A stretch of DNA of 64,000 nucleotides from Candidatus Latescibacterota bacterium (GCA_963791045.1 CAWBQK010000015.1:1-64000), one strand, 5' to 3'; positions 3,254 through 41,037 are shown, counted from the first letter of the stretch. A program made the numbers and translations. The notes: generated by a model from the sequence alone, not told the origin.

Positions 3254-3254
3254 T

Positions 3255-6015: not shown

Positions 6016-6489
6016 TTAGTTTTTACAAACCTTTATATTATCAATTTTATCGTTACTTTTCTTAAGTGTAAAATGCTCTTCTTTTACTAGCTTTCCTTCC
6101 TTAAAAGAATCTAACTCCATGTGTAAGGCGCTTCCATTAATAGTCAAAGTAAAAATTCCATGTTCTTTAGAACTTTCCTTTATTTTAATCTGTACTTTAT
6201 TTTTCTTATTCTCAAGAACCTCAGTCGCCACTGATTCGGAATATCTTTCAAAAAAATAACAATCATCTAAAACATTATACAACCATATCTCGAAAGGTTC
6301 AGATTCCGACTTGTTGATCTGAGCGTAAATGGTGAGTCCATCTTTAGGCTCTCCATATTTCCATAAGGTTCCTTTATAAGTTTCGAGAAAAGTTCTTTTC
6401 TCCTTCTCCTTTAGATTAAAAGCACTAAAAAAAACTGCGATAATTACAAGTACAGCGAATGCCTTAATTCTTAAAATATTTGATTTCAT
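6016..6489 (-). CDS. Hypothetical exported protein (paralog 2)
   Basis: Shares FLET..GT.WK.GEP.DG...YAQIN.....PFEIW.Y with 5407-5883. Has a signal peptide but no lipobox Cys. Confidence 0.8.
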   Translation of the reverse strand: MKSNILRIKAFAVLVIIAVFFSAFNLKEKEKRTFLETYKGTLWKYGEPKDGLTIYAQINKSESEPFEIWLYNVLDDCYFFERYSESVATEVLENKKNKVQIKIKESSKEHGIFTLTINGSALHMELDSFKEGKLVKEEHFTLKKSNDKIDNIKVCKN

Positions 6490-6627
6490 AGCTTTAATTT
6501 TAATTTAACTGCAACTCTATAAACGAAATAAATGCGCTAAAATTGTGAATCAAGGGCCATAAAATACTTAAAACTGACTTCTTGTCATATAACTATGCTT
6601 TGGCTTGATATTGGAAGCTCCTCATGC

Positions 6628-8109
6628 ATGAGTAAAAACAAAGTTTCCTTCGCATGGGCCTTTAAAGAATTTATTTGGCCTCGTAAAAAAATCGTGTTCA
6701 TAGGATTGATACTGATCATCTTGAAAAGTTTGGCCGGATTGGTATTACCTTATGCTACAAAAAATCTTATAGATGACATTATTCCTTCTCAGGATATGAA
6801 GGCATTGTGGATACTTTTGGTTGTAGTAGTCATTTCGATTATTATTCAGGCAGTGAGTTCATTTTCACTGACCAGGCTGCTAAGTGTTGAAGCTCAGCAT
6901 CTTATTTCTTTATTAAGGGCCAAGGTTCAAAAGAAACTATTGACCTTACCTATCAGTTTCTTTGATAACAATAAGTCGGGAGCACTGGTGTCAAGGGTGA
7001 TGACTGATGTGGAAGGGGTAAGAAACCTTGTAGGTACAGGTTTGGTTCAATTAATTGGCGGGTCCTTAACATCAATTATTTCCTTGATCATACTGATAAA
7101 GATCAACGCTACCATGACTCTTTTTGTTTTACTGCCAGTTGCTGTCTTCGCGATTATTGCTTTAAAAGCCTTCGGTTATATACGCCCCATTTTTAGGGCC
7201 AGAGGAAAAATCAATGCAGAAGTTACAGGAAGATTAACGGAGACCTTAAATGGTATTCGGGTTATCAAAGGATTTAATGCGGAGGCCCAGGAATTGAGAA
7301 CTTTTGAAGATGGTGTTGAGCGCCTCTTTCTCAATGTAAAAAAGAGTCTCACGGCTACTGCCTTGATGACCAGTTCTTCGGCCCTTTTACTGGGGCTTGC
7401 ATCAGCGGGGATTATGGGCATGGGAGGCTATTTTATCATGAATGGCAATATGACCTATGGTGAATTTGTTTCTTTCACCCTTTTCCTTGGATTTATGATA
7501 GCGCCTATCGTTCAAATGAGTAACATAGGAAGTCAACTCACCGAGGCCATGGCCGGTTTGGACAGAACGCAGGAATTGATGGACATGGAAGAAGAAGATG
7601 ATCCAAAGAAGCGAACCCTATTAATTGAAAAAGTAAAAGGAGACATCCTTTTTGAGAACGTTTCTTTTAGTTATGAAAAAGGAAAGCAAGTTCTTCATGA
7701 TGTCTCTTTTTCAGCACCGGCTGGAAGCGTCACTGCACTTGTTGGATCTTCGGGTTCCGGAAAGTCTACTATCGCTGGTCTGGCTGCTACTTTTCTAAAT
7801 CCGAATAAAGGAAAGGTGACTTTAGACGGTTTAGATCTTTCACAAGTTAATCTAAACAGTTACAGGTCGCATCTTGGTGTGGTACTTCAAGACGATTTTT
7901 TATATGAGGGAACTATCAGAGAAAACATATTGTTTCCAAGGCCTGATGCCAGTGAAGAAGAATTAATGGAGGCTGTTAAAGGTGCTTATGTACATGAATT
8001 CACTGATCGTTTTGATGATGGTCTTGAAACCGTTATTGGTGAACGAGGTGTTAAACTTTCGGGAGGTCAAAGACAGCGCATCTCTATAGCAAGGGCACTC
8101 TTGGCAAAT
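6628..8109 (+). CDS. ABC exporter (fused TMD + NBD, MsbA/Sav1866-like), 3' end cut at the junction
   Basis: ABC membrane domain, Walker A GSSGSGKST, signature LSGGQRQR. Stops resembling the family after IARALLAN, so Walker B is absent. Confidence 0.9.
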
Positions 8110-8158
8110 AGCAATATGATGAGCCAAGCAAAGAACAATACCTGGCTAGACCATTTGC

Positions 8159-8950
8159 TTAGAAGAACCGGCGATAGTTCGTATTGTGCTTCAAAAGGGC
8201 GGCTCCCGATCGAAGATGATCGAGAAGCCGGGCCGATTTCTCGACTTTGATGGCGCGCGGCTCGCCGGCAAAAAAGAACAGGATCGTCCCTACAGCCAGG
8301 CATCCGGCGCCTAAAATAAAAATAATCCCGAAATCAGAGGGAAACGGATGCCCCAGAAAACCAAGCCGGCGCACGCCACCCTCGACAAGATCAAAGACCT
8401 CCCCTCCCATCCACACCCGGTCCGAACTCTCGCCGAGTATGATTCCCACAACCATCCCGGCGACAATACCCAGAATTCCGCCAATAAACCGCCGCGTCCC
8501 AAAAAACACGCCCCTCTTCGTGGCCGGAATGGTCTTGCTGACGATTTCGAGCATCGGCACAGCGGCCAACCCGCCGGCAAGGTAGGCAAAAAAGATCGCC
8601 CCAAGAAAGATGGTCAGGAAAACAGCGGGGTTGTCTACATCCACGACGAATGCGACCGCGGCAATAGCGCCAAAACCGATAATACGGGGGATGGAGGCGA
8701 GTCTGTACAGATTCATCAGGTACCCCCTCGTTTCGGCGAGCCGCGAGGCGAACACCTGCGGGAGGAACCAGCCGACAGCATGAAGCGAGCTGACGAGCCC
8801 CACGAGCACGGCCGAACCACCGAGCTTCATTATAAAAACGGGCAGAACGGTGAACGGATCGAGGAACGCCATACCCACATTGATGAGCGTCCCGGTGACA
8901 ACGCCGAGAACGAAATTGCGGCGGTAATAGGGTGGTTGCTGGTTTGCCAT
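8159..8950 (-). CDS. MFS transporter, 3' half cut at the junction
   Basis: About six TM helices (FLDPFTVLPVFIMKLGGS, KTIPATKRGVFFG). Ends at the central loop, NYRRFF. Confidence 0.75.
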   Translation of the reverse strand: MANQQPPYYRRNFVLGVVTGTLINVGMAFLDPFTVLPVFIMKLGGSAVLVGLVSSLHAVGWFLPQVFASRLAETRGYLMNLYRLASIPRIIGFGAIAAVAFVVDVDNPAVFLTIFLGAIFFAYLAGGLAAVPMLEIVSKTIPATKRGVFFGTRRFIGGILGIVAGMVVGIILGESSDRVWMGGEVFDLVEGGVRRLGFLGHPFPSDFGIIFILGAGCLAVGTILFFFAGEPRAIKVEKSARLLDHLRSGAALLKHNTNYRRFF

Positions 8951-13885: not shown

Positions 13886-14693
13886 CTACTCTCCGAGTTC
13901 TTGAAGCGCGACACGCGCCTGCTCGGCCTCTTCACTCCTCGGATAGCGGGAAATTAGCTCGCGAAAAGACTTGTCGGCAAGCGGCTTTTCCTCCAGTTCG
14001 CTGTAGCAGAAGCCGGATTTCAAATAGCAAGCCGCGACAAGCCGCGAGCGGGGGTATTCCTTGATCACACTTTGGTACTCGGCCACGGCTTCGAGATGCC
14101 GGTCCATCGAGTAATACGACTCACCCAGATAATAGTGCGCATCGGGGGCATTCGGAGCATCGGGAAACCGGACGAGATAATTCTTGAATCCCTGCAACGC
14201 AAGGTCGTAGTTGCCAAGCGTCAAATCCATGTACGCCGCCTGAAAAAGCCTCCCCGCTTCGTCATTCGCGATGGTGGGAGGACCAGTGCCCGTGCTGTCC
14301 CGTTGGGCAAGCAGGAGCGAATCCGTGATTGCCGTCCCCAGCCGAGTCGGCGCCGAGCGAATCCGCGGCGGCCAATCTGTAAAAAGCCGGGCTGTTTTAC
14401 GCGACATAAAGAGCTGTGCGCTGTCGTCGACCCGGTATGCCGAGCATCTCGAGGGCATCCCGGAGTTCCCGCAGCGCCAAAGCGCTTTCGGCCTGGGTCT
14501 GGACTCTTGCTTCACGTTCCTGCTGATAAAGAGCGCTAAGCTCGTCTATCCGCTCGAGGAGTTCTTGTTGCGTGGTCTTGACCGTATCGAGTTCCTGATA
14601 AGTGAACTCCATCATCTTGGTGCTGTAACACCCGGAGACCAGACCCAGGCCGATGCCAAATACAATTAGCTTTTTGAGAAGCGCTAAACTCAA
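13886..14693 (-). CDS. cpoB: Tol-Pal protein CpoB/YbgF (frameshift at about 14440)
   Basis: Lipoprotein signal (VSGC) and coiled coil in ORF 14397-14693. TPR domain (GNYDLALQGF, AHYYLGESYY) in ORF 13886-14515. Lies directly after pal. Confidence 0.85.
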
Positions 14694-14705
14694 TTAAATT
14701 ACCTG

Positions 14706-15233
14706 CTACTGATTAACTACAAAATGACCGCGCCGATTCTTCGCCCAGGCCGCTTCCGTGTGACCTGAATCGAACGGCTTGTCCTTGCCATAGCTGACCG
14801 TCGTGATCTGGCTCGCGGGAACGCCCAACGACACGAGAAAATCTTTGGCCGCATTGGCGCGTTTCTCGCCGAGCGCGAGGTTGTAGGATCTCGTCCCGCG
14901 TTCGTCGCAGTGACCCTCGAGCGTGATCGTCATGCCCGCGGCGTCTTTGAGCTGGGTCGCATTGCTCGACAGAATACTCTTCGCGTCCGGAGACAGGGTC
15001 GCCTTGTCGAAGTCAAAGAAAACATCATTGAGCACGGGCATCTTGACCGGCTCGACCTCTTCGACTGCGGCCTCTTCTACTTCTTCAACTTCCGGCTCGG
15101 GCGGCGGCGGAGCGGTTTCGACTTCCGTTTCCGGCGACGTCTCTACTTCGGTCGTCTGTTTTTTGGAACACGCGCCCATAGCCAAAACAAAAATCCCGAT
15201 GAGCACGAATATCAACAACTGTTTACGCAACAT
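14706..15233 (-). CDS. pal: Peptidoglycan-associated lipoprotein
   Basis: Lipobox MGAC, VFFDFDK, EGHCDERGTRSYNLALGEKRA, SYGK, KNRR. Confidence 0.96.
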   Translation of the reverse strand: MLRKQLLIFVLIGIFVLAMGACSKKQTTEVETSPETEVETAPPPPEPEVEEVEEAAVEEVEPVKMPVLNDVFFDFDKATLSPDAKSILSSNATQLKDAAGMTITLEGHCDERGTRSYNLALGEKRANAAKDFLVSLGVPASQITTVSYGKDKPFDSGHTEAAWAKNRRGHFVVNQ

Positions 15234-15283
15234 CCGGCAAACCTCCCTTTAACATCTGCCTTACCATCAAACAAAAAAAGTTC

Positions 15284-16513
15284 TCAACGAATTGACCAGT
15301 CCGGAGAATCACCTTGCGACAATATTCGCTTACCCCCCGTGTAGATGTCAATAATTGATATGACATTTTCATACCCGCGTTTCTCGGTCAAAATGACGTG
15401 CCGGCCGTTGGGAGCCCATCTCGGATCTTCGTGGTCGACCGCCTCCTGGGTAATCTGGCGGTAATCCCTGCCGTCGGGCCGGATCGAACACAACTGAAAA
15501 AACCCGCCGATCCTGGAAACAAACACGATCCGGTCCCCCTTGGGAGACCACGCCGGCGATTCGTTGTACGCGCCGTGGTAGGTCAAGCGGCGTCCATTGC
15601 TCCCATCCGCCTGAATAATATAGACCTGCGGGGTTCCCGAACGATCCGACGTGAAGGCGATTTCCCGGGCGCTCGGGGACCAGCTCGGGCTGCAGTCGAT
15701 CGATCGGTTGTGTGTCAGGCGTCGTTTGACCTTGCCATTCTTGTCGATGATATAGAGCTCGGCATTCCCGTCCTTGCTGAGCGTGGCGACGAAATTCCGT
15801 CGCCGCGCCGACCAGTCCACCGAGTAATTCAACCCCTTGAAGCTCAAAAGCGGCTTCGACGAGGGCTCTTTCAGATACCTTATATAAAGATCGCCCTTGT
15901 TCTTGCGGAAGCTGGTGAACACGAGGCCCTTGGACTCATCGATCCACCGCGGGTACACGACGAGAACGCTTTGCCTCAGCAAAACGCGGGGGTTGTAACC
16001 GTCGTAGTCCGACATGACGACTTCCCACATATCGCCCGCTTTACGGCGGTAGAGCACCCTCGTACTCGCGATCCCCGGTTCGCCGGTGAGCATGCGCACG
16101 ATTTCATCCGCGAAATGATGTGCGATCTGGCGCATCTGGTTTGGTTTAATGACATATCTTTTGCCGCCGATGGTGAGCTTGTTTGCCGCATCGACGACAA
16201 CGCCTTCGAAATGGGTTTCCCCATTCTGCAGCTTCAACACCCCCCTGACCTCGACGAGATCGGCGCCGTTTTTCGACTGGGGAACCCGGCCACGCGTGAT
16301 CTTGAAGATCCCCGAGAACTCGAGATCCGCCGTGATGAGCTGTTCGAGGGTGGTCGCGTGGTCGGGACGCGCGCCGTCCACCGCCCTGAAAGGCGTCACC
16401 GAAAGGGGGATCTGTTCGGCGTGGGTCGTTTTTATGCCGAGCTCCACCTCTCGCTGCGCGGACGCGGAAAGTGGCAAGACGAGGCATAGCAGCAAGATAA
16501 AGGCAATACGCAT
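15284..16513 (-). CDS. tolB: Tol-Pal beta-propeller protein TolB
   Basis: Signal peptide, DLEFSG, AHHFADEI, PD40 repeats (SPSWSP, SPAWSPKG, DPRWAPNG). Confidence 0.92.
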   Translation of the reverse strand: MRIAFILLLCLVLPLSASAQREVELGIKTTHAEQIPLSVTPFRAVDGARPDHATTLEQLITADLEFSGIFKITRGRVPQSKNGADLVEVRGVLKLQNGETHFEGVVVDAANKLTIGGKRYVIKPNQMRQIAHHFADEIVRMLTGEPGIASTRVLYRRKAGDMWEVVMSDYDGYNPRVLLRQSVLVVYPRWIDESKGLVFTSFRKNKGDLYIRYLKEPSSKPLLSFKGLNYSVDWSARRRNFVATLSKDGNAELYIIDKNGKVKRRLTHNRSIDCSPSWSPSAREIAFTSDRSGTPQVYIIQADGSNGRRLTYHGAYNESPAWSPKGDRIVFVSRIGGFFQLCSIRPDGRDYRQITQEAVDHEDPRWAPNGRHVILTEKRGYENVISIIDIYTGGKRILSQGDSPDWSIR

Positions 16514-16517
16514 AGTT

Positions 16518-17210
16518 TTACTCTTCTTCATATGCAAAGCTGAAATGAACCCCAAGAAAGTCGTCTCCGAATCCGCCGGGAAGCGGCGGGAGCGGACTCG
16601 CCTGGATGACCGCGCGCTGGGCGGCCTGGTCAAACAAAAAGTTCCCCGAAGAAGTCTCCACGGTCGGCGAGTCGATCGTGCCCGACCTGCCGATTCTGAA
16701 ATAGACACGACAATGGATCGATCCGCTTGTCGTCCCCGGAACCCGCCAGTTGGCGGCGATCTTCCGTTTGACCGTCGCGAGGTAATAGGCGAACGGAAAA
16801 TCCTCGACGTCGAGCGCCATATCCCCGGTCGCGACCGCCGGCGCCATCACCGTATCAACCTCGGTGGACTCCACAATCTCGGGCGGTTCGATCGGCGTCG
16901 GCTGGATTTTTTTGGGCTCTTCTTTTTTCTTTGGTTTCTTCTTTTTTACGGGTGTAACGAGTTCTTCCTCTTTGGGAGGTTCCACGACTTTGGGCGGAGG
17001 GGCCGGTGGTGTTTCCTCGGGAGGCGGAGTGACCTGCTGGACGGGCGGCTTGACGACCTGTTCCATCGACACGAGTTTTACCGCATACACATCGCGCGGA
17101 ACAAAACGGACCTGACGGAAACGGATAATACGCATCGTTACCACACCGAGAACGATGTGGAGAAGCAGCGATATTACGATCGCGTTTCTCATCGTTTGAA
17201 CTTTGCCCAC
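16518..17210 (-). CDS. TolA/TonB family protein
   Basis: N-terminal TM with SLLLH, Pro/Glu/Lys-rich linker, TonB_C-like end (SSGNFLFDQAAQRAV..PLPPLP). Confidence 0.85.
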   Translation of the reverse strand: MGKVQTMRNAIVISLLLHIVLGVVTMRIIRFRQVRFVPRDVYAVKLVSMEQVVKPPVQQVTPPPEETPPAPPPKVVEPPKEEELVTPVKKKKPKKKEEPKKIQPTPIEPPEIVESTEVDTVMAPAVATGDMALDVEDFPFAYYLATVKRKIAANWRVPGTTSGSIHCRVYFRIGRSGTIDSPTVETSSGNFLFDQAAQRAVIQASPLPPLPGGFGDDFLGVHFSFAYEEE

Positions 17211-17226
17211 GTTGCCAGCTGCCTCT

Positions 17227-17655
17227 TTATTTTTTCTTCTTCATATCTGTAATCATGCCCACCTCATCGATCCCCACTTCCTTGACGTGACCGATCACTT
17301 CCATAACCACACCATACGGCACGTTCTGGTCCGCCCGCACAAAGACCCGTTCCTCGCCGGCCACCTTGAGGTTGCGAAGCGATTCCTCGAGCTCGTCGCG
17401 TTCGATCTGGGCGTTGTTGAGATACACGTCGCCTTCTTCGGTAATCGCGAGAATGACCCCCTCGGTCTCCTTGATCACCGTCGAACTCGTTTTTGGCAAC
17501 CGCACCTTTATCCCCGCCTGGATAAACGGGGCCGTCAGCATAAAGATGATCAGCAACACCATCGTCACATCGACAAGCGACGTGATGTTGATATCGGCGA
17601 GCGAGCTATAGCGACGTTTCTTCATCTGCCGACTCACTTTCGACATCGCCGCCAT
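17227..17655 (-). CDS. tolR: TolR/ExbD
   Basis: DINITSLVDVTMVLLIIFM, VRAD..VPYG.V. Confidence 0.9.
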   Translation of the reverse strand: MAAMSKVSRQMKKRRYSSLADINITSLVDVTMVLLIIFMLTAPFIQAGIKVRLPKTSSTVIKETEGVILAITEEGDVYLNNAQIERDELEESLRNLKVAGEERVFVRADQNVPYGVVMEVIGHVKEVGIDEVGMITDMKKKK

Positions 17656-18325
17656 CGGCGAGTCTGGTTCGCGTCAACTCAAGAATTCTCGATACAAAAA
17701 GTTCGATCCGGGTTTCCTGCCGGTGGACGTGACGCAGCAGCAAGTTGTAGCCGACCACCGCCGGAATCGCTGCCCCAAGACCGGCGATTGTCGTGATCAA
17801 AGCCTCCGCGATCCCGGGGCCGACCACGTCGATACTCGCCGTTCCATGAACGCCCATGCTCAAGAAGCTGCTCGCGATACCCCACACGGTTCCGAGGAGG
17901 CCGAGAAAGGGTGCGACCGCCGCCGTCGTGGCCAGGAAAACGAGGTATTTCTCCATTTCCGAAACCTCAGTCACGGCGCGCCGATCGAGGATATCCCTGA
18001 GCTGGCCGGTGCGCCCCGACGCCTTGTTGGTTTCCATGTACCTCTTGGCTTCGAGAAGCAGGACTCCTTCGACGGACGGGAGGCAGGTTTTGAGCGTATC
18101 TGACGTAAATCCAAGGCCTTTTGACGCAAGAATCGTCTGGAGTTTCTGCCCGCCTTTCCTGAGTTTGATATACAGGCGGGACCTGTCGTAGATAATCGCC
18201 CAGGAAATCACCGAGATAACAAAGAGAATGAAGAGAATGGCCTTGGCAAAAAAACCGCTCTCAAACATAAGCGATGGTACCGATTGTCCGAGACCCGCAA
18301 ACACTGCCACGCTGTGAGATTCCAT
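17606..18325 (-). CDS. tolQ: TolQ/ExbB proton channel
   Basis: APFLGLLGTVWGI, PGIAEALITT..GL..AIPA. Confidence 0.92.
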   Translation of the reverse strand: MESHSVAVFAGLGQSVPSLMFESGFFAKAILFILFVISVISWAIIYDRSRLYIKLRKGGQKLQTILASKGLGFTSDTLKTCLPSVEGVLLLEAKRYMETNKASGRTGQLRDILDRRAVTEVSEMEKYLVFLATTAAVAPFLGLLGTVWGIASSFLSMGVHGTASIDVVGPGIAEALITTIAGLGAAIPAVVGYNLLLRHVHRQETRIELFVSRILELTRTRLADGGDVESESADEETSL

Positions 18326-26948: not shown

Positions 26949-27872
26949 CTAGTCCAAATCTGAGAGGATCGCGTCCGCCCGTCCGGCGAATGCTGTATCT
27001 TTGTGCAGATTACTGACCCTTTCGAGGAGTTCCCGGGCTTCGACCTGCTTGTCTTGTCCGTCCAAAACAACCGCGAGATCGATAAGGATGACAGGATCTT
27101 CGGGTTGAGCCTTGAGCGCGGCCCTGAGAAGATTCTCCGAACGATCAACCGCCCCATCCATGTACGCGACAATCGCATCGAGTACCATCAATCGAATGTC
27201 TTCGGAAAAGAGTTTCCGAGCGTCGGCGATATAGACTCTCGCCGATCCGATCCGATGGGTGGAAACGTAGCCGGCTACGAGCCAGTAAGCCACGTCAGGG
27301 GTTTCTCCGCCGGATTCATAACGTTCGTGGAGTGCGGCGAGCGACAGGTCAACGGATTCTGAAGCAGAACTCGACCAGGCTCCGCCGACCGAACGATATA
27401 CCGGAACACTGTCCCCGACGAACAATTCCCCACCAGGGAGAACAAACACATCCGTCGAAGAGTATTCCGCAACGGCAACTTCAATCGGACCGAGGACGGA
27501 TGGATCCAGACCCGAATGGGTCAACCGACCGGCCAGCCGTACCGAAAACCACGCACTAACGGTTACGACGAGACAGACAGCGGCCACGGTGACGACACGG
27601 GTTTTCCAATTCCGCCAAATGCCACCGCGCCTCAACCCCTTGGCCTCAGGGCGAGCGCGCGCCTCCCCGGCAATACGCAGCCCATCCGTGACGAGCCCGA
27701 TAGGGGTATCCACCGGCCCCGCCGTTCCCGACTCATACAAACCAAGTTCAACCACGGAATCCTGATACAACTTGTTACATTGGTTGCATGTACGCACGTG
27801 CGCAAGAATCATAGCCCGGTCTATTTCGCCAAGCCGATTTTCGAGCATCCGAGCGATATCATCCACCGCCAC
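26949..27872 (-). CDS. zf-HC2 anti-sigma-like protein with TM helix and C-terminal TPRs
   Basis: H...AHVRTCNQC zinc motif, TM VVTVAAVCLVVTVSAWF, TPR-like helices at the C-terminus. The true start may lie slightly upstream. Confidence 0.75.
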   Translation of the reverse strand: MAVDDIARMLENRLGEIDRAMILAHVRTCNQCNKLYQDSVVELGLYESGTAGPVDTPIGLVTDGLRIAGEARARPEAKGLRRGGIWRNWKTRVVTVAAVCLVVTVSAWFSVRLAGRLTHSGLDPSVLGPIEVAVAEYSSTDVFVLPGGELFVGDSVPVYRSVGGAWSSSASESVDLSLAALHERYESGGETPDVAYWLVAGYVSTHRIGSARVYIADARKLFSEDIRLMVLDAIVAYMDGAVDRSENLLRAALKAQPEDPVILIDLAVVLDGQDKQVEARELLERVSNLHKDTAFAGRADAILSDLD

Positions 27873-28065
27873 GTGGGGTGTGTCAGGAGCTTTTCCGATA
27901 ACCGACTCCTCCTCTTCACGGACTCCGACAATTCAACGTCTTTCAACTGTAAAGAAATTATTACACTCGGTGTAACGTTTTCTTTACATATACGGCCAGA
28001 GCAGAGAAATTCCCCGCCGAACAAGTGTGAGACACAACCGCGTCATGAGTTGGACGAACTTTCTT

Positions 28066-28932
28066 CTACAGCTGTCTCTCCGCCTCCATCGCCTGACGTA
28101 GCTTCCGAACGACCTTGTCGATCAACGTGTAGGCTCGGCGTTGCCCACTGAGCTTGAGTCTGCCCGCGATCTCCCGCGCGGAGAGACGCCGGTTAAATCG
28201 CAGGTCTATGATCTCCCGCTCGCGCGGTGTCAGCGACGCCACGAGTCCGGTCAACCGCTCGACCACGGCGCGGCTCTCTTGCTCCACCAGGTTCTCGTCC
28301 GGCCGGCCCGAATGCAGAGTCTCTTCGCATTCCAGTTTGAGCTGAACGAGGCACTTGAGCATTTGCGCCGACTCGGCCCCGCAACGCTTCGCCTGTCGCT
28401 GTCTTTCGAGCCGGCACAAATACCGCCGGTCCATTACATCTTCGATGCGTTCGATACAATCCACAATTTCATCAATCGTCAACCGTTGTCCACTCCACTC
28501 CAAGACGCCAAGCGTAATCTCTAGCGGCAACCGCTTTATAAAATGAAGCTGCAGAACTTCCTTCTCCAGATCGGATAGTCTCTCATAGCCCTCGGGCACA
28601 CGATAGCGTCCGTGACGTTGTCTCAGCAAGTCGAGCGCTCGGCTTCGCGTGTAGACAATCAGCCACGTTGTAAGCCGAACATCACCGCGGAACTTCGCCA
28701 GTTCACAATGATAAAGGGAGTGAAGCACGTCCACATGCACCGCACGGATGTCGTCATCGTCTTCAGCTACGAGATGTCGTCGAACGACCCCGTAGATCAA
28801 TCCCGTGTAGCTGTGCACAAATTCGTGCCACGCATCTATGCATCCCGAGGTGACAGCTCGTACGAGAGTCAGATCACGCGTTAACTGATCAGAGGTGTTC
28901 TTGGCTTCCTTGGAGTCGCTGTGGATGGACAT
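28066..28932 (-). CDS. Atypical ECF-type sigma-70 factor with an internal insertion
   Basis: Region 2 (AWHEFV..Y..LIY, FRGDVRLTTWL...RSRALDLLR) and region 4 (LTPREREIIDLRF..LSAREIA). Probable ATG at 28932. Confidence 0.8.
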   Translation of the reverse strand: MSIHSDSKEAKNTSDQLTRDLTLVRAVTSGCIDAWHEFVHSYTGLIYGVVRRHLVAEDDDDIRAVHVDVLHSLYHCELAKFRGDVRLTTWLIVYTRSRALDLLRQRHGRYRVPEGYERLSDLEKEVLQLHFIKRLPLEITLGVLEWSGQRLTIDEIVDCIERIEDVMDRRYLCRLERQRQAKRCGAESAQMLKCLVQLKLECEETLHSGRPDENLVEQESRAVVERLTGLVASLTPREREIIDLRFNRRLSAREIAGRLKLSGQRRAYTLIDKVVRKLRQAMEAERQL

Positions 28933-29258
28933 TGTCCCTTTGTACCCCGGTTCGAGTCTTTTGACTGCGAGCGTATCTGCCGCGCGACTCACGACCGTTT
29001 TCCCCAACGCCAATGTCGCTACAAAACAAACAGTCGCTTTAAAGTATAATTGACGACGGGCCGAATAACAAGATGGAGCGTGTCGAAGCCGCAGATGTTT
29101 TCTCGATTCTCTAAGAAAGATAAACTTTACAAAAAACTTGAGCATATTCTTGGGTAATTGTATCCTAATGTCCGTACCATGCGCCGGGATCACGGTACAT
29201 TGACGGCAACTTACTCACGTCAATCACGCTTGCCACTGACCCGTCAGGACATCCTCAA

Positions 29259-32123
29259 ATGGCGAACAACACGAACGCACAACAATGTTGGCGACGCCAC
29301 ATTTTCCTGCTGGCCCTCTCGGTGCTTGCCACGTTGGCGCTTCTTGACTGCACCCAAAAACCCAAAAACGATCTGCTGGACGGCCTCTCGCCGGGGTTGA
29401 TCCGGCACTTGGTGTCGAGTGACGACAGCACGCTCGCCCGTTACTTTCGCCACATGGGTTACGCGGATTTCCGCGAGATAATCAACACCGTGGCAAAAAA
29501 TGAATTTCTGGCGTGGCAGGCCGGTCGCGAGGATGATGCGCGAAAGACCAGAGGATATCTAAAACGATTGGCGTACATATTCGCCGTGTATCGACATACA
29601 CCCAAACCCCTTCGAGATGTCGAATTTCGCGAACGTTTACCCCGCGACACACACGATGAATTGATTAGGGCCAGATTCGAACTTCATCTCTTGAACAAGG
29701 ACACCATTCTGTCCGCGCGGGAGCGAATGGATGCGTTCACTCTGTTGATGGGGCGACTTGCGTCTCTGAAAGATACGGTGTCGGTTGCGATGTGCCAGTG
29801 GCATATCGCCTTTGCTGCAGCGGCGCTTGGCGATCAAAAAAAACACCGGACATTTTTGCGGCAGGCTTATGAAGGCTTCGCGGCGCTTGGCCATCATTCG
29901 ATGACGTGCCAGGCCCTTGGCGTCCTCGGAGTCCACCACGAACGGGCGGGTCAAATTGACTCGATGATCGTCTGTTACGAGGAAGCATGGAGAATCGCCA
30001 ACCGAAGCCGTATGGGGAACCAGGCTGCCCGAATCTTGTCCTTCTACGGCGGGCACTACCGGCGCCAGGGGCGGCTCGACCTGGAGCGTCTTCTCCATCT
30101 TCGCGCCGTGGAAGTCGCGCGAGCGTACAATGCAGGCTACCGTGAGATTCGTTTTGTCTATCAGGCGATGCGGTTCCATGCAGATCTCGAGTGCTGGGAT
30201 GTCGTCGAGAAACTTCTCCCACAGGCCCAGGGAATCAAGCGCCGAGGTGCGAACAGGGATTTGGGGATTTTTGAAATTAACTACCTCCGCAGCGATGCAA
30301 TCGGTGCCCGGCTGAAAATGGCACGCGGGGATGTGACCGGCGCGAAAAAAATGTTTGACAGAGTCCTTCAGCGCATATCGGAACTCAACCTTCCTTACGA
30401 GTACCGGGGCGAAGATGATTCTATGTACGTTTACCGTTCGAGGGGCTTTTTGGAAAACGGCCACCCGGCAGACGCCCTCGCAGATACACGCCAGGCGCTT
30501 TCCCGCCCGCCGGATGAGACGACCCCGTTTTGGTCCGCGCATCTCGCGCTTCTCATGGCAAAAGCCGCATTCGAATTGGATGACAACTCAACCGCGGAGT
30601 CGGCGCTCGAGGACTTTGATCGATTCTCAGTCGGCGTGGAACATTCCCTTCGGAGAGAGCTGACGGAACGTGACGCGCTTTACGGGAGGATCGCGTTGTC
30701 ACGCGGAAATACAACGAGCGCTGCCGCCGCACTCATGGCAGGCCTCGCCAGGCTCGAACAGATCGCGACAACGATTGATGCAAGTGTTGGAAGTTACATA
30801 TGGCTGGCCGGCTGCCGAGATCTCCGAAATCTCATGCATGAACTGACGTCCGACGACCCACTTGCCGGATACGGCGCGGAGCTTTATTGGCGCGGACTCT
30901 TTGCGCAACTCGGAGCCGAGCACCGCGGTGGACGCACGTCACGCGTGTCTTCCGTATCTGTTTCCTTGACGAACTCCGCCACGGGCGGATTGAGTTCTGA
31001 TTTCGAAAACTTCATACCTGTTTTACGCTCCAACGGCGAGAGAAACCGCGTGCGGACGGCGGCGCTCGACGCCGTTCATTGTGTTTACCTCGTGCGCAAT
31101 GGAAATATCTGGCGATGGACAGCATCCCGTAGCGGGATTCGGCGAGAAACACTTTCGGCGGACGCGAAGATCGTGCGAGGACTGGTGACAAGAACCGTCA
31201 AGATGATGTCGAATCATCCACGTGAGAGGGATTCTGTCCCGTCGACTGAGCTGCGTAAGACATTGCAAAAACTGGCCAAAGTGCTGCTCCCAGGCGAGAT
31301 GTGCCGGGTGAATGCCGCTGATACCTTTGACGTTTCAACATTCTTTGTCACGACGGACGGTTTTCTCGGACAGATTCCCTTCGAGGCTTTGGATGTTGGA
31401 AACGGTGACGCCTACAATCCGCTTCTTGCCGATCGTGACGTGGCATACATCCGAAGCCCGACCGTACGGAAGCCTCGCACCGCAACTGGGCCCGGTGTCA
31501 TTCTGGTGAATGCCGGGGCGACGGGTGTCCGCGAACACTTCGTTTCCCAACCCTCGCTTCGCTATGTTGAACCCGAGGGCAAAACGGTATTTCTCATCGA
31601 TTCCACAGCCAAATATCTGTCGGGAGATGCGGCCACCAAACCTCGGCTGACCTCCCTTTGGGAAGATTCTCCGTTTGTTTATATGGCGACACATACGATA
31701 TACGATCCAGAGGCGCCATACCTCGTGATGATCCCTCTCGCCGCTTCACACGATAATCCCGCACCCGACGCCGCCTACCTCGATATTTCCGATATCCGGC
31801 TGGCGGATCTCGGCGGGTGTGAAATTGTGGTTCTTTCGTCATGCTCAAGCGGTACGCCATATGTTCAACACAACACTTTTGGCCCGGGTCTCGGAGACGC
31901 GTTTCTTGACGCCGGAGCGGGAGCCGTCGTTCACACGTTCTGGAATGTCAAGGACGAGGACGCGCGCCGGATCGGCACTCGTTTCGTGGGAAGCTGGAAA
32001 AGGGATGGAACACCGGCCGTCCGTGCGCTCTCCGATGTCCGCCGCGAGGAGATGCGCGGGCCGGAGGGGATCCGACATCCGTCCTACTGGGCGGCGTACG
32101 CGATCAAGCTGTCGCGGTTTTGA
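29259..32123 (+). CDS. TPR-CHAT (caspase HetF associated with TPRs) protease
   Basis: N-terminal hydrophobic segment and TPR-like helices, then CHAT motifs DGFLGQIPFEAL, ATK, YMATH (catalytic His), VVLSSC (catalytic Cys), GLGDAFLDAGA..VV.TFW.V.D and HPSYWAAY. Confidence 0.88.
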   Translation: MANNTNAQQCWRRHIFLLALSVLATLALLDCTQKPKNDLLDGLSPGLIRHLVSSDDSTLARYFRHMGYADFREIINTVAKNEFLAWQAGREDDARKTRGYLKRLAYIFAVYRHTPKPLRDVEFRERLPRDTHDELIRARFELHLLNKDTILSARERMDAFTLLMGRLASLKDTVSVAMCQWHIAFAAAALGDQKKHRTFLRQAYEGFAALGHHSMTCQALGVLGVHHERAGQIDSMIVCYEEAWRIANRSRMGNQAARILSFYGGHYRRQGRLDLERLLHLRAVEVARAYNAGYREIRFVYQAMRFHADLECWDVVEKLLPQAQGIKRRGANRDLGIFEINYLRSDAIGARLKMARGDVTGAKKMFDRVLQRISELNLPYEYRGEDDSMYVYRSRGFLENGHPADALADTRQALSRPPDETTPFWSAHLALLMAKAAFELDDNSTAESALEDFDRFSVGVEHSLRRELTERDALYGRIALSRGNTTSAAAALMAGLARLEQIATTIDASVGSYIWLAGCRDLRNLMHELTSDDPLAGYGAELYWRGLFAQLGAEHRGGRTSRVSSVSVSLTNSATGGLSSDFENFIPVLRSNGERNRVRTAALDAVHCVYLVRNGNIWRWTASRSGIRRETLSADAKIVRGLVTRTVKMMSNHPRERDSVPSTELRKTLQKLAKVLLPGEMCRVNAADTFDVSTFFVTTDGFLGQIPFEALDVGNGDAYNPLLADRDVAYIRSPTVRKPRTATGPGVILVNAGATGVREHFVSQPSLRYVEPEGKTVFLIDSTAKYLSGDAATKPRLTSLWEDSPFVYMATHTIYDPEAPYLVMIPLAASHDNPAPDAAYLDISDIRLADLGGCEIVVLSSCSSGTPYVQHNTFGPGLGDAFLDAGAGAVVHTFWNVKDEDARRIGTRFVGSWKRDGTPAVRALSDVRREEMRGPEGIRHPSYWAAYAIKLSRF

Positions 32124-34847: not shown

Positions 34848-36912
34848 CTATTTCAGAAACACCATCTTTTTTGACAGCGTGTGCTTGCCCGCGGTGAGAC
34901 GGTAGAAGTAAACACCCGAGCTCACGGGGTTTCCCGCGCCGTCCAAACCATCCCATTCAACACTTCGCGTACCCGCGGGTTGATCTTCGTTGACAAGAGC
35001 CCGAACGAGCTTTCCGTCCGGACCGTAGATCGCCAGCGCCACACGCCCCGCTTCGGGGACGGTAAACGAAATCGCCGTCACGGGGTTGAAGGGGTTGGGG
35101 TGATTTTGCGCGAGCGACAAAGATATTTCCGCCGAACCGACAGTTACCGGTCGTGATGAGACACTCGCTGTTGTCGGCGAGAACGACACCCAATCGGTAG
35201 GTGTACCCCTCATCGCGCCGCGCCGTCTCGTCGGTGAATGATTTTTTGTCCGGCGCAATCAGCCGTCCGCCGTTCAAAAGATCGAGACGCTCGAAAGCCC
35301 CCGTCTGGCGGTACAGCCGGTAACCGGCGACCTCTTCGTCGGACAAGACATCCCACATGAGATCGACACCCACAGCTCCCCACGCGGCATCGAACCCGTT
35401 TATAAACACAGGCACCGGGTTTTCAATCGGGATGATCCAGTGGACGTTTGTTTCATTTCCCGCCAGACCTGTCATGTAGTGCATGCTGTCTTCATCCGCA
35501 TACCCGCAGTATGTCCGGAAGAATTCTTCCTGTTCGCAGTCATGATTTATATAAACGACCTCGCCTGCGCCAACATCGACGGGGGTCCCGGGATTACACG
35601 GATCGACAACAACACCCGTCCGTGGTCCGTGGACGGCCGTCTCGCGGCCGGCAACACCGGTGGACGGGTCGCCGTCGAGGTTGAACCAGGCTCCGTCGAA
35701 TGTGAGCTTGGCCATCGCCGCGTTTTCTTTGAGCCCCTCGAGACCGTCGCCGACGACAAGAGCGACCTGGAACTTGACAGACTCCCCGGGCGGGAGCTCG
35801 GAAAATGGCCCCACACTCAAAAGCACCCGGTGGTCACGAGGAATCAGCGTGTTCGACTCAATGGTTTCCTGGGAAAGGATTTCGTATCTCTCGAAGTCGT
35901 TGGTCGGGTCGCCGCCCTCTTCGTACGACTGGTCGCCGGAGAAGTTCGCAAATGTCGACGTGCTGACGTGTAGCGGCGCGTTAACTCCGAATGGATCCGT
36001 TGTGTGTCCGAGAAGTACGACTCCTAAATAGCTGGTCGCTTGCCCCCCGTCACCGTCGACATCATAGGCATACGCCATATCGAACTGTGTCGGTCCCAGC
36101 GGCGTACACACGGCGACGTGCGTGAAGGCGCTCGCATCATCTGCGTAGTAGTTCGGGGTATCCCTGTGACCGATGTCCGGGTCGGCAAAGAACGCAATAA
36201 ACACATCATCGAGAACAACGCTTCCAATATTTGTTATCGTAAACTCGATACCGACAAAGTCATCGAACATCGGGTGAGCCCACTGATAGCTCTCCTGGCG
36301 GACCATAATATCGAGAGGGTTGTGGTCGGGGTAGATCGCAATCGCTTCGGGCGTATTGTCCGCGAACCAGCAGCTGAACATCTGGTCGGATATCGCAGCG
36401 AAGTCTTCGTCGATCATTCCGTCGAGGTCGTCGTCGTGACCGTTGAGCCAATCTTCATCGACCATTCCGTCCCCGTCGTCATCGGCGTCAACCGATGGAT
36501 ACCGGTTCCCGCCAAGCGCGCCTTCAGCCGATCTGTAGATGATATCCACCGGATCGGCGGTCGGTCGAAACTCCGAAGCAAATATTGAGGTGGACACACC
36601 GGGCACACCGAGCTTCAACGCACCCACCCACAGCCCACCCGCATAGAGATGTTCGATCCGGCTCCCCACCGGCCACTCCGCCGACGGCGCGTCAGCGAAA
36701 GGCATCCCCGAACCGGGCATCGATCCGAAGAGCCCCCAGTTTCCGACATGAACGCCAAGCTCACCAACGTTATGAACGTTCGACCCGTCAACGACCAGAA
36801 CTCCCTCGGGTCCCGATCGGATTCCCTTACTAAAATCAATGGGGTTGGCTCCGGTCATCAGAAATGACACCAATACCAGGGCCAGAACGAAACTCAGCCT
36901 TCGGGATCCCAT
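34848..36912 (-). CDS. Secreted protein with acidic Ca-binding-like repeats and FlgD-Ig/T9SS-like CTD (frameshift at about 35160)
   Basis: Signal peptide, VHNVG..NWGLFG..SAEWP..HLYAGGLWVG, DDDGDGMVDED repeats. The CTD (QNHPNPFNP..SSGVYFYRL..KKMVFLK) is in the adjacent frame, ORF 34848-35258. Confidence 0.78.
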
Positions 36913-37128: not shown

Positions 37129-38571
37129 CTAACCCTTGATTACAGCGATCGGTTTGATTTCAGCAACTTTTGTCGTGATCTTCGCGTTGTGAAGCACATC
37201 GACAACCTCACCGACATCCTTGTAGGCCTCCGGCATTTCCTCAGCGAGCGTCCGAGAGTCCTTCGCGACGACGGTGACGCCTTCGCGTTTGAGTTCTTCC
37301 GTGAGCGACCTCCCGCGGCCTTGTTTCAGCGCCGCTTTCCGGCTCAAGACACGGCCCGCGCCGTGACAAGAACTGTAAAACGGGTGATCGTCGCCCTCCG
37401 CCGAACCGACAAGAAGATAAGAGGCGGTTCCCATGTCGCCGGGGACGAAAACCGGCTGTCCCACCCGCCTGAAGCGTGCCGGAATCCTGTCGTCACCTGG
37501 AGGGAGCGCACGGGTTGCGCCCTTGCGGTGGACACAAAGCTTTCGGTCTTTTCCATCCACACGGTGCGTTTCGATTTTTGCGATGTTGTGGCAGACATCG
37601 TAAATCAACCTGAAACCAAGTTCCTGCTCCCCAATCCCGAGCGAGCGTGCAGCGGCACGTTCGGCGATCACCATAAGCGTTTGCCGGTTGGCCCACGCAA
37701 AGTTCGCCGCGGCGGCCATCGCGGCGAGATACGACCGTCCCGTTTCGGAATCCAACGGCGCGGCGGCGAGTTGACGATCGGGGAGATCGAACCTGAACTC
37801 GTGCGCGCGCGACGACATCGTCTTCAGATAGTCGGCGCAAACCTGGTGACCGAGACCGCGCGAACCACAGTGGATCATAAACGTGACATCACCCTCGCGG
37901 AGACCAAACACATCGGCAATCTCCGGTTCAAACACATGGTTGACATAACCGATTTCCAGGAAGTGATTCCCCGAACCCAACGATCCCAACTGGTGGCGCC
38001 CCCGCTCGAGCGCGCGTTCGCTGACCGCAGCGGGGTCCGCCCCGGGCATCGCCCCGTTTTCTTCACAGAATTCGAGGTCCGTGTCCGTTCCAAATCCGTT
38101 TTTGACAACATACGAAGCGCCGTCGACAAGGACCTTTCGAAGTTCTTTTACCGAAAGCTCTCCAAAACCGGTGCCATGCGGTGATGGGCCGGTCGGGATG
38201 CTTTGAAAGAGGTGGTGGATGAGCGGGCCCACCCGGTCGCGAATGTCTTCGATACGGAGATTGCTCGCCATGAGCCGCACACCACAGTTTATGTCGTAAC
38301 CAACACCGCCCGGCGAAACGACACCGTCATCGTCGAACGCCGTCGCCGCGACACCCCCGATCGGGAAACCGTAGCCGACATGGATGTCCGGCATCGCCCA
38401 CGAGTAACCGACAATCCCGGGCAGGTGTGCGACGTTGACAACCTGTGTAAACGACTGTTCGCGGCGGATGACGTCCATCATACGCGCGTCGGCGTATATC
38501 CGCCCCGGGACCCGCATCCGTCCCTCGCGCCGTATCTCCCAGAGCCAATCGGATTTCTTTTCGACCTTCAT
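37129..38571 (-). CDS. rtcB: RNA-splicing/repair ligase RtcB
   Basis: MPDIH.GYGFPIGGV, GVGYDINCG, GSLGSGNHFLE, H.GSRG, HN, HRKGAT, HGAGR, EEMPEAYK. Confidence 0.95.
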   Translation of the reverse strand: MKVEKKSDWLWEIRREGRMRVPGRIYADARMMDVIRREQSFTQVVNVAHLPGIVGYSWAMPDIHVGYGFPIGGVAATAFDDDGVVSPGGVGYDINCGVRLMASNLRIEDIRDRVGPLIHHLFQSIPTGPSPHGTGFGELSVKELRKVLVDGASYVVKNGFGTDTDLEFCEENGAMPGADPAAVSERALERGRHQLGSLGSGNHFLEIGYVNHVFEPEIADVFGLREGDVTFMIHCGSRGLGHQVCADYLKTMSSRAHEFRFDLPDRQLAAAPLDSETGRSYLAAMAAAANFAWANRQTLMVIAERAAARSLGIGEQELGFRLIYDVCHNIAKIETHRVDGKDRKLCVHRKGATRALPPGDDRIPARFRRVGQPVFVPGDMGTASYLLVGSAEGDDHPFYSSCHGAGRVLSRKAALKQGRGRSLTEELKREGVTVVAKDSRTLAEEMPEAYKDVGEVVDVLHNAKITTKVAEIKPIAVIKG

Positions 38572-38690
38572 GGTCTCAACGCCCTCTGTTTCAGAACAAT
38601 AGATACTTCTCCCACACATATTATAACCCCCTCCAGGCCTACCCGGGACATAAATGTCTACCGCCCCCCGATGCTCGCGACCTCGAACAC

Positions 38691-38722
38691 AAAAAAAACC
38701 GGCCCGCATTACACGGGCCGGT
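38691..38722 (-). terminator. Intrinsic terminator
   Basis: accggcccg-N7-cgggccggt followed by a T-tract on the minus strand. Confidence 0.75.
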
Positions 38723-38750
38723 CCTGTCGCGATCCACACAGGCGGATCCG

Positions 38751-39875: not shown

Positions 39876-40910
39876 TCAGACACGGAGGTCGTCAAGAAAT
39901 TCGGGGGTTGCGGGCGCCGCCGAGATGACTTTGACATCGTCTCCGTTTACAAACCGGACGTCGACCGCCGGCTCATTTTTTCCGCCGCCGTACCTGGCAA
40001 TGATCGACGCGATCGTCTCCCACTCTTTGTCTTCGACTTCACCGATGATCACGGCGACCGGACCGGCGAATTCGACGGCGCCGGCGGCCCAGCGGTTGTC
40101 CGTATAATAAGAGAGAAAGTTGTTTTCGATTTCATCCCGGCCAACAATCAACTTGAGCTTCGGAGACAACCTGAAATGCCGTCCGACGCCAAGTACAAAC
40201 ACGTCCTCGACGGACATTCCCTCCGTGCCGCCGTGCTCGATCACATCGCGGAACTTGTTCGAATACGCTTCGTCGGTGAGAAAGCAGCAACCGCCCGACG
40301 GCTGCATGAATGACTTGAGCCCAAATCTCCGCGCCAGTTCGATTTGCATCTTTCTCCCCCTCCCGAAAATCCCGTAAAGTTTTTCGCGGTCTACGAGACC
40401 CTCCTCTTCGACAATGGTGGGCGGGAGAGCCTTGGCGGAGAGCGGTCTCAACAAGCGCCCCTCGAGACCTGTGTCTTTTTCGATTGCGCGAAGCATCGTT
40501 TTTAGCTGGGATTTCGGCCGCTGCCCGATCACCTCGCCGGTAAACACGAAATCGGCGCCTGTTTCCTCCATCCGCTCTTTCGCCTTGTTTAGCATGAAAA
40601 TGCGGCAGTCGACACACGGATTCATGTTTCTCCCGTAACCAAATCTGGGGTTGAGAACCATGGGAAGGTACTCTTCGGAGATATCCACCAATTCGACGGG
40701 GATTCCCATTTCCGCCGCCACCTGGAGGGCGTGGTTGGCAATGGGCCGCGTGGTTCGGCCCACTCGGCTATTGTGTCCGGTCACACAAAAACCGGTAAAG
40801 AAGTGAAGGCACTCCACCTCGACACCGGCGTCCTTCAATATTAGAGCCGCCAGCGCGGAGTCAAGCCCGCCCGATAAAAGTCCAACACCTTTGGCCTTTT
40901 TCTTGGTCAT
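39876..40910 (-). CDS. ThiI/MnmA-like PP-loop tRNA thiolase family protein
   Basis: SGGLDS, NPCVDCR, TGEVIGQRPKSQ, GRLLRPLSAK, GGCCFLTD, GRHFR. Confidence 0.8.
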   Translation of the reverse strand: MTKKKAKGVGLLSGGLDSALAALILKDAGVEVECLHFFTGFCVTGHNSRVGRTTRPIANHALQVAAEMGIPVELVDISEEYLPMVLNPRFGYGRNMNPCVDCRIFMLNKAKERMEETGADFVFTGEVIGQRPKSQLKTMLRAIEKDTGLEGRLLRPLSAKALPPTIVEEEGLVDREKLYGIFGRGRKMQIELARRFGLKSFMQPSGGCCFLTDEAYSNKFRDVIEHGGTEGMSVEDVFVLGVGRHFRLSPKLKLIVGRDEIENNFLSYYTDNRWAAGAVEFAGPVAVIIGEVEDKEWETIASIIARYGGGKNEPAVDVRFVNGDDVKVISAAPATPEFLDDLRV

Positions 40911-41037
40911 TATCCCGCCCACCGCCAAACTGTATGGGTACCCATTCTCCGACGACAATCGCCGCAGAAGCTCAAGAATCACTGAACCCATACAATATAG
41001 TCGGGAATCGTCTCGTTGACAAGCGGTCGAAAAGGGA

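Follow-up and report, generated by a model that had tools for sequence, protein, structure and literature searches.

A conserved TPR-CHAT, anti-sigma, and ECF-like sigma factor trio from a Latescibacterota genome as a candidate split DdvA-like envelope switch

This work describes a three-gene locus in a stretch of 64,000 nucleotides from Candidatus Latescibacterota bacterium (GCA_963791045.1, CAWBQK010000015.1:1-64000). The stretch, referred to here as the window, is C15:1-64000 in a draft genome of 3.66 Mb with a completeness of 81%. At positions 26949 to 32123, it carries genes for a TPR-CHAT protease with a predicted export signal, a single-pass zinc-finger anti-sigma factor, and a sigma factor resembling those of the extracytoplasmic function (ECF) superfamily. 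The trio is a conserved unit among related genomes, and, by homology, its CHAT and anti-sigma proteins are the counterparts of the two halves of a DdvA-type protein. The reading that we favor, tentatively and at a little under an even chance, is that the trio is a split DdvA-like envelope switch in which the exported CHAT protein acts as the signal-sensing site-1 protease of the anti-sigma factor. Within this reading, we infer the binding of the two proteins, the cleavage of the anti-sigma factor by CHAT, the cleavage site, and the signal.

The three proteins and their relation to DdvA

In DdvA, a zinc-finger anti-sigma domain, a transmembrane (TM) helix, a flexible linker, and a TPR-like scaffold are joined in a single polypeptide to a periplasmic TPR-CHAT domain (PMC11506125). 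Comparison of the anti-sigma family profile to longer proteins retrieved 21 generic TPR proteins and P0008, in which zf-HC2, TPR, and CHAT domains are combined in 1006 aa. The match of P0008 to DdvA (8rot_B) has an E value of 1.5e-125. In hhalign, it also matches the anti-sigma profile over residues 2 to 289, which is the whole length (probability, 98.8%; E value, 4e-17), and the CHAT profile over the catalytic region (probability, 97%; E value, 8e-11). Because P0008 matches DdvA and both profiles, the two window proteins are, by homology, counterparts of the two halves of a DdvA-type protein.

The 954-aa protein matches Pfam CHAT (PF12770) at residues 667 to 948 with an E value of 5e-32. An earlier note on this DNA, prepared from the sequence alone, had pointed to an apparent His/Cys dyad in the motifs YMATH and VLSSC; these contain H812 and C862, respectively, and each residue is invariant in 32/32 orthologues. 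The structure model of the protein (predicted local distance difference test [pLDDT], 88.4; predicted template modeling score, 0.86) places a disordered loop, residues 558 to 582, between the TPR and CHAT regions. With this model as the query, Foldseek matched separase, DdvA, and Csx29 (8rot_A was ranked third, with an E value of 1e-13), and VIA-align gave Z scores of 22 to 28 for the same three proteins. The widest coverage was obtained with DdvA (8rot_A; Z, 22.4; root mean square deviation [rmsd], 9.3; 633 residues aligned), and the comparison to Csx29 gave a Z of 27.7 (rmsd, 10.4; 490 residues aligned; Csx29 chains, Z of 26 to 28). When the CHAT sequence profile was compared to PDB sequences, TPR proteins and the active-site stretch of separase were matched, and DdvA was absent from the matches at an E value of ≤0.01. 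As such, the link to DdvA needed both the fold search and the P0008 bridge.

Cys31, which terminates the N-terminal hydrophobic helix of the CHAT protein, is invariant in the 13 orthologues aligned at this position. Of 33 distinct orthologue N termini, a Cys follows a hydrophobic stretch in 29; the other 4 (L100, L103, L105, and L109) have a hydrophobic anchor and no Cys. The residue at position -1 relative to this Cys is Ala, Ser, Gly, or Thr in most orthologues. The lipobox of the window protein reads LLDC, and because the Asp at -1 is atypical, lipidation of this protein is likely but not certain. The sequence thus predicts an extracytoplasmic CHAT protein, in keeping with the suggestion of the earlier note that the TPR array would sense a signal that is probably extracytoplasmic. 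Given this predicted export, only the periplasmic half of a single-pass anti-sigma factor would be within its reach.

The same genome encodes a full-length CHAT paralogue (G000:C19:984-3801; 37% identity) with no sigma or anti-sigma gene beside it; its lipoprotein-type N terminus lies in a different frame from the remainder. A CHAT fragment (G000:C11:54433-55292) has the same overlapping open reading frames (ORFs) as this paralogue and may represent a duplicate assembly or a strain variant.

For the anti-sigma gene, the earlier note had described a zf-HC2 domain, a TM segment, and a TPR domain encoded after the sigma gene, and all three features were recovered. The zf-HC2 match itself scores 20.2 bits, under the Pfam cutoff of 22.2, and the orthologue at locus L039 scores above it (25.1 bits); H25, C29, and C32 of the HxxxCxxC motif are invariant in 29/29 family members. 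One hydrophobic span (residues 93 to 111) is followed by ~195 residues predicted to be periplasmic, and the span lies at the same place in the other listed anti-sigma factors except L041, which is mis-started. A periplasmic loop, LPG...YRSG, contains an invariant R160, with P146 and G147 present in at least 90% of sequences (n = 29). Further along, TPR_19 is matched above the Pfam cutoff at residues 238 to 292. Compared to the PDB, the family profile matches consensus TPR proteins with an E value of 7e-36, and generic TPR matches swamp the list. The family is large, exceeding a hundred clusters by a good margin at 50% identity, and its best 150 representatives at that level are almost all full-length matches of ~300 aa. 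Taken with the predicted export of CHAT, this topology would place the C-terminal half of the anti-sigma factor in the periplasm, along with the protease, and the sigma factor in the cytoplasm.

Two relatives of this anti-sigma factor depart from the usual form. In the closest complete genome (locus L039; 5997-8117, minus strand), the ORF is 707 aa long and continues into a lamin-tail domain and then a domain resembling FlgD_ig or a type IX tail, which may be a real fusion or reflect a lost stop codon. A paralogue in the window's own genome (G000:C15:269104-269982, minus strand; 37% identity) has no adjoining sigma gene; its HxxxCxxC motif is intact, and the sequence upstream of the motif contains no start codon (ATG, GTG, or TTG). 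This paralogue is located just downstream of the gene for a type IX secretion protein of 2501 aa, and another CHAT gene (278509-281727) is 9 kb away.

The sigma gene was assigned an ATG start giving 288 aa, from which 30 orthologues align; the mechanical ORF extends to position 29193. The product passes the NCBIfam sigma70-ECF model TIGR02937 (56.8 bits versus a cutoff of 42.9) and matches Pfam Sigma70_r4 with an E value of 1.6e-9. The TIGR02937 match spreads the 165 model positions over residues 33 to 282, leaving an insert of ~110 residues between sigma2 and sigma4 that is common to 30/30 aligned sigma factors, and the protein is therefore not a plain two-domain ECF sigma factor. In the structure model (pLDDT, 87.3), additional helices occupy residues 121 to 233. 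The best full-length fold matches are three-domain/group 3 sigma factors, i.e., SigB (8x6g_H; E value, 1.5e-5), sigma-S, and sigma-28, and classical ECF sigma factors align with the model over just ~160 to 180 columns. Judging by the model, the protein is ECF-like by sequence, not by architecture, and has a sigma3-like domain. Thus, of the earlier assignment to the ECF sigma factors, superfamily membership stands, and the two-domain architecture without sigma3 that the assignment would imply was not borne out. In the ESM Atlas, clusters of long sigma factors were seen in Krumholzibacteriota, Acidobacteriota, and Gemmatimonadota; these are leads only.

Pfam and NCBIfam scans found all three genes where the earlier note had placed them, with the domains that it had named. 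The anti-sigma gene lies directly downstream of the sigma gene on the same strand, and the CHAT gene is on the opposite strand (Table 1).

Table 1. Positions of the trio and its features, counted from the first nucleotide of the window
Feature	Position	Strand	Basis
Single-pass anti-sigma factor, 307 aa: predicted cytoplasmic zinc-finger domain, one TM helix, conserved periplasmic loop, 3-repeat TPR	26949..27872	-	Pfam, hydrophobicity, family alignment, profile versus PDB
HxxxCxxC zinc-binding motif of the anti-sigma factor (HVRTCNQC), residues 25-32	27777..27800	-	Translation check; invariant in 29/29
Predicted TM helix of the anti-sigma factor, residues 93-111	27540..27596	-	Kyte-Doolittle maximum 2.33; translation check
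Conserved, predicted periplasmic loop LPG...VYRS of the anti-sigma factor, residues 145-161; candidate CHAT docking/cleavage site	27390..27440	-	Alignment of 29 sequences
Predicted periplasmic TPR domain of the anti-sigma factor, residues 188-298	26979..27311	-	Pfam TPR_19; PDB TPR profile match, E 7e-36
ECF-like sigma factor, 288 aa: sigma2 (~6-107), helical sigma3-like insert (~121-233), sigma4 (~236-287)	28066..28932	-	NCBIfam/Pfam, alignment, model
Sigma/CHAT divergent intergenic region, 326 bp	28933..29258	.	Gene boundaries
Conserved noncoding block GTAATT-N10-TGTCCGTAC, ~80-105 nt upstream of the CHAT start codon	29154..29180	+	Alignment
TPR-CHAT protease, 954 aa, predicted exported: signal peptide with Cys31, TPR superhelix (~45-556), disordered linker (558-582), CHAT (586-954)	29259..32123	+	Pfam, alignment, model
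Predicted N-terminal export signal of the CHAT protein, ending in Cys31 (lipobox-like LLDC)	29259..29351	+	Orthologue N termini
Predicted catalytic His812 of the CHAT protein	31692..31694	+	Invariant in 32/32; codon checked
Predicted catalytic Cys862 of the CHAT protein	31842..31844	+	Invariant in 32/32; codon checked

Conservation of the trio and its upstream regions

Gene neighborhoods were gathered in two passes. For the first, 29 loci were fetched around sigma matches in 28 genomes beyond the window's own; for the second, an alignment-based scan for CHAT, using one genome per species, gave 40 loci. The final tally added 12 further loci, scored all loci with profile hidden Markov models (HMMs), and removed duplicates. 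Since relatives share synteny, counts across these genomes are not independent of one another.

The earlier note had asked whether the trio is conserved in related genomes, and it is: both sigma and anti-sigma genes are present at 32 of the 43 distinct full-length CHAT orthologues. A sigma gene alone accompanies one orthologue (L079, where the flank is N-masked), an anti-sigma gene alone accompanies three (L094, L106, and L118), and seven have neither partner; in four of these, at least one flank is shorter than 1 kb, and the other three are true orphans. Counted from the other side, 51 distinct sigma factors have CHAT in the locus in 35 cases and an anti-sigma factor in 48. At three loci with no tblastn match to the anti-sigma factor, an ORF with the HxxxCxxC motif still follows the sigma gene. 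The separate passes gave a sigma factor in 29 of 61 related genomes (the window's own counted) and zero sigma matches in G017, a genome that is 92% complete. A CHAT orthologue was found at 13 of the 29 loci around sigma matches; the other 16 hold a sigma gene, and tblastn also found an anti-sigma gene at 15 of these. Among the 40 CHAT-seeded loci, 28 contain a sigma gene, and most of the remainder end at contig edges.

Gene order varies among the loci (divergent, convergent, or codirectional) while linkage persists, including at protein identities of 25 to 45% (lowest, 25 to 30%). Several genomes contain two to three paralogous sets of the trio, and flanking genes are not conserved among loci. 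At L094/L120 and L118, the anti-sigma and CHAT genes are immediate neighbors, divergent or convergent, that no sigma gene separates, and the contigs stop at this point. Because the arrangement is conserved across loci, it is far beyond chance. The CHAT subfamily, at an E value of ≤1e-60, is present in 49 of 208 genomes and 33 of 81 genera of the phylum. Relatives with CHAT loci are labeled Candidatus Krumholzibacteriota, Krumholzibacteriia, Latescibacterota, or Eisenbacteria, and a few have other labels. On a quick tree of 44 sigma factors, CHAT adjacency is explained by 2 changes, and the rows without CHAT are a tight clade of 14 (genus g13) and L060. One g13 genome (G029) has a CHAT orthologue on another contig.

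A fourth conserved gene was also considered. Beyond the trio, just the type IX secretion C-terminal sorting domains of unrelated proteins recur; this association was rejected, as 13 such domains in 322 kb near the trio (40 per Mb) compare to 29 per Mb genome-wide with the same HMM. TIGR04183 sorting-domain matches numbered 99.

The region upstream of CHAT contains a conserved noncoding block. The pattern TAA[AT]-N9-14-GTCC[GA] occurs upstream of CHAT in 8/32 loci, versus a mean of 0.44 and a maximum of 3 in shuffles. Strict matches to the block number 11 in the genome, versus 2 to 5 in shuffles, and the copy at 29154 to 29180 is the only intergenic one; because the other 10 all lie within long ORFs, the block was rejected as a regulon-wide motif. 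The ECF-type motifs GAAC-N15-18-CGT and AAC-N16-17-CGTC show no enrichment upstream of either the sigma or the CHAT gene. A loose sigma-70-like pattern is enriched upstream of both, at 17/30 loci for sigma and 13/32 for CHAT (means of 3.7 and 4.2, respectively, in mononucleotide shuffles).

Proposed mechanism and competing explanations

In the proposed split switch, the zinc-finger domain of the anti-sigma factor would retain the sigma factor in the cytoplasm, as its family suggests, and its periplasmic part is, by homology, the counterpart of the juxtamembrane linker and the first TPR-like scaffold of DdvA. The separate TPR-CHAT protein, exported and probably lipid anchored, would use its long TPR superhelix to sense a periplasmic signal, probably a protein. 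Its H812/C862 dyad would then cut the anti-sigma factor in the LPG...YRSG loop just outside the membrane, after which an RseP-type site-2 protease would remove the remainder and free the sigma factor; the genome has three genes for M50 proteases. A similar step has been proposed for DdvA, with CHAT making a site-1 cut in the linker of the partner protomer and RseP acting afterwards, although the authors could not show this (PMC11506125). The DdvA dimer is arrow-shaped, with each dyad facing the partner's linker (PMC11506125; PDB entries 8ROT, 8RW5, and 8RLZ), and V129 to P140 is the linker stretch closest to the dyad in the structure (PMC11506125, Fig. 3B legend). Through two printed alignments, R160 of the window anti-sigma factor aligns with R165 of P0008 and then with DdvA residue 131. 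The R160 loop is thus a candidate cleavage site that maps inside V129 to P140, and this mapping is only suggestive because both alignments cross a gapped loop and the DdvA residue is Met. A complex prediction for CHAT residues 150 to 954 with anti-sigma residues 114 to 307 gave a best score of 0.31 against a mark of 0.32, and nothing is drawn from this score.

Separases cleave after Arg (PMC11506125), and a bolder form of the proposal would make the exported TPR-CHAT protein a new class of site-1 protease, with a caspase fold, that responds to a periplasmic protein signal and, like separase, cuts after the invariant Arg of LPG...YRSG, with fused DdvA as a derived, self-cutting version of a widespread two-protein switch. 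We consider this extension doubtful, if possible.

Several observations weigh against a site-1 role for CHAT. CHAT activity has not been demonstrated for DdvA, whose H862A and C907A variants behave like the wild type (PMC11506125), and the mapping of R160 onto DdvA has the weaknesses just given. Orphan CHAT orthologues occur despite ample flanks (L087, L119, and L126), and the C19 paralogue in the window's own genome is an orphan as well. Conversely, no CHAT gene adjoins the sigma/anti-sigma pair in the 14 g13 sigma rows, where the pair and its LPG...(Y/H)R(S/T)G loop are kept, and in the four g13 genomes that were searched whole (G014, G015, G023, and G031), the best match is to the CHAT domain only (E values of 4.6e-7 to 4e-14). 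The conserved upstream block belongs to CHAT, with the TAA[AT]-N9-14-GTCC[GA] pattern found upstream of sigma in just 1/30 loci. Lastly, surface display of the CHAT protein, if real, would put the anti-sigma factor out of its reach.

Much of this evidence would also be expected if CHAT were the output of the switch rather than its trigger. The sigma/anti-sigma pair would then respond to a different envelope signal through another site-1 protease and switch on the divergently transcribed CHAT gene, whose product would process other periplasmic or surface proteins. The upstream block, the g13 pairs, and the orphan CHAT genes all favor this explanation, as does the general point, made in PMC7826278, that the neighbors of ECF sigma genes are frequently targets and that regulators are hard to tell from targets. 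On the other hand, the part of DdvA to which the anti-sigma factor is homologous has TPR-CHAT covalently attached, which argues for a direct physical partnership, and at some loci CHAT lies directly beside the anti-sigma gene with no sigma gene between them. The two parts of the block are 11 nt apart, a spacing too short for a standard sigma-70-family promoter, and a second intergenic copy is absent from the genome. On balance, we judge the output explanation unlikely, though a serious contender. Somewhat more unlikely, in our estimate, is that CHAT is a noncleaving partner that binds the anti-sigma TPR domain and sterically shields the protein from the site-2 protease, like the bulky domain of DdvA, until a signal releases or destroys CHAT, e.g., by self-cleavage in the 558 to 582 linker. 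Removal of TPR-CHAT from DdvA is enough for RseP-dependent degradation (PMC11506125), which fits such shielding, as do the dyad variants without phenotype and the disordered loop in our CHAT model. Nevertheless, the invariance of the dyad in all 32 orthologues indicates that catalysis is under selection, and the invariant Arg loop of the anti-sigma factor resembles a recognition site.

The two remaining explanations carry very little weight. One is that the genes are neighbors by descent only, with no functional link. Shared synteny and the resulting nonindependence of counts speak for it; linkage that outlasts rearrangements of order and strand, that is kept at 25 to 45% identity and in paralogous copies within one genome, and that coexists with nonconserved flanking genes makes it highly improbable. 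The other is the literal form of the logic proposed in the earlier note: inside the cell, CHAT would cut the sigma-binding inhibitor in a cytoplasmic switch like that of Csx29/Csx30. The note's summary of Csx29, Csx30, and CASP-sigma agrees with PMC10028731, where the craspase logic is published, and the CHAT fold does resemble Csx29. However, each of the 33 distinct CHAT N termini has a hydrophobic export signal or anchor (with Cys in 13/13 aligned), and a predicted exported protein cannot act on a cytoplasmic inhibitor as Csx29 does, so that we regard the literal form as ruled out for practical purposes and give it next to no credence. The lack of cas or defense model matches near the trio, described below, also stands against it.

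If the split switch is correct, a caspase-fold cysteine protease would join the short list of enzymes that initiate anti-sigma proteolysis, and TPR-CHAT/sigma switches would be a general envelope-signaling device, not just a companion of CRISPR or defense systems. The natural split supplies the putative enzyme and substrate as two soluble pieces, so that both can be combined and mutated in vitro and any cut mapped, with the R160 loop as a candidate site. The sigma factor is itself unusual in combining an ECF-like sequence with a predicted sigma3-like domain.

Genomic neighborhood and comparison with known systems

The neighbors of the trio include genes for an M3 peptidase, a type IX secretion cargo, RtcB, Tol-Pal-like proteins, a peptide ATP-binding cassette (ABC) importer, and resistance-nodulation-division (RND) pumps. 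The RtcB RNA ligase gene (37129-38739, minus strand; E value, 3.7e-163) lies 5 kb from the trio and is followed by a gene for a ThiI/NFACT-R-like protein (39876-40988). The Tol-Pal-like cluster (13886-18322) encodes a YbgF/CpoB-like TPR lipoprotein, a PD40 beta-propeller, a TonB/TolA-like protein, and a MotA/TolQ/ExbB protein. At 34848 to 36912 (minus strand), a 651-aa ORF without a Pfam family (34957-36912) overlaps a 136-aa type IX sorting-domain ORF (34848-35258) in another frame; the pair has the look of a single cargo gene interrupted by a frameshift or by an error in sequencing. An island at positions 1 to 8250 has a guanine-plus-cytosine content of 32 to 42%, versus ~55% elsewhere in the window. 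It contains genes for a sulfotransferase (3453-4601), an ABC exporter (6595-8250), two small ORFs without a family, and a 142-aa protein (4769-5197) that is barely more than a type IX secretion sorting tail; an Rfam search of the island gave zero matches.

PADLOC-DB contains Cas models. PADLOC gave 0 matches on 31 ORFs (window positions 9.5 to 52.6 kb), so that nothing defense-related was found within ~20 kb of the trio; this agrees with the view of the earlier note that no Cas effector accompanies it, a CRISPR array not having been searched for. Type III-E craspase shares with the trio a TPR-CHAT fold, the joint encoding of a protease, an inhibitor, and an ECF-like sigma factor, and a logic of sigma release by proteolysis (PMC10028731). 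It differs in being cytoplasmic, RNA-guided, and bound to Cas7-11, whereas the window CHAT protein is predicted to be exported and has no Cas match nearby, and the window inhibitor is a membrane zinc-binding anti-sigma (ZAS) factor, not Csx30.

Classical regulated intramembrane proteolysis, as in the DegS/RseP, RseA, and sigma-E system (PMC10028731, in part), likewise involves a single-pass anti-sigma factor that undergoes a periplasmic site-1 cut and then cleavage by an M50 site-2 protease. Unlike the PDZ serine protease of that system, the candidate site-1 enzyme here belongs to the caspase-fold cysteine proteases and has a TPR sensor. Actinobacterial ECF54 sigma factors also have a gene for a CHAT-domain protein in their context, together with carboxypeptidase and subtilase genes, and this group is described as being without an anti-sigma factor (PMC8999054 and PMC7826278). 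That description sets ECF54 apart from sigma factors of the window type, for which a ZAS anti-sigma factor is present in 48/51 loci.

The earlier note had regarded the locus as a candidate for an undescribed system. In the literature covered, we found no paper on a split TPR-CHAT lipoprotein with a ZAS anti-sigma factor and a sigma factor, and supplementary tables (those of PMC7826278 and table S7 of PMC11506125) might list such contexts. The nearest reports were those on DdvA and craspase and the remark on ECF54. Homology to the published DdvA/DdvS pair means that the system is not wholly undescribed. Fused DdvA forms are reported only in Myxococcota and one Comamonas (PMC11506125, the supplementary table falling outside the portions covered), and the lineage of the window is other than that of the myxococcal host. 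DdvA/DdvS controls an antiphage defense island, DdvA-like pairs near defense genes are only a subset of those known (PMC11506125), and PADLOC placed no defense genes, CBASS and CRISPR included, near the window trio. DdvS, at 182 residues (PMC11506125), differs from the window sigma factor with its ~110-residue sigma3-like insert.

With DdvA/DdvS, the trio shares a predicted periplasmic TPR-CHAT module with a His-Cys dyad whose model matches the periplasmic domain of DdvA (a separase/craspase-type fold), a zinc-finger anti-sigma motif followed by a single predicted TM span, and an adjacent cognate ECF sigma factor, and the same site-1 protease role is proposed for both. In a protein of the DdvA family, moreover, the N-terminal ~280 residues are homologous to the window anti-sigma family. 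In the window, the TPR-CHAT module is a separate gene of 954 aa, so that any cut would be made between two proteins rather than by autoproteolysis within a dimer. The fused DdvA/DdvS form is already published; what appears to be new here is its split form.

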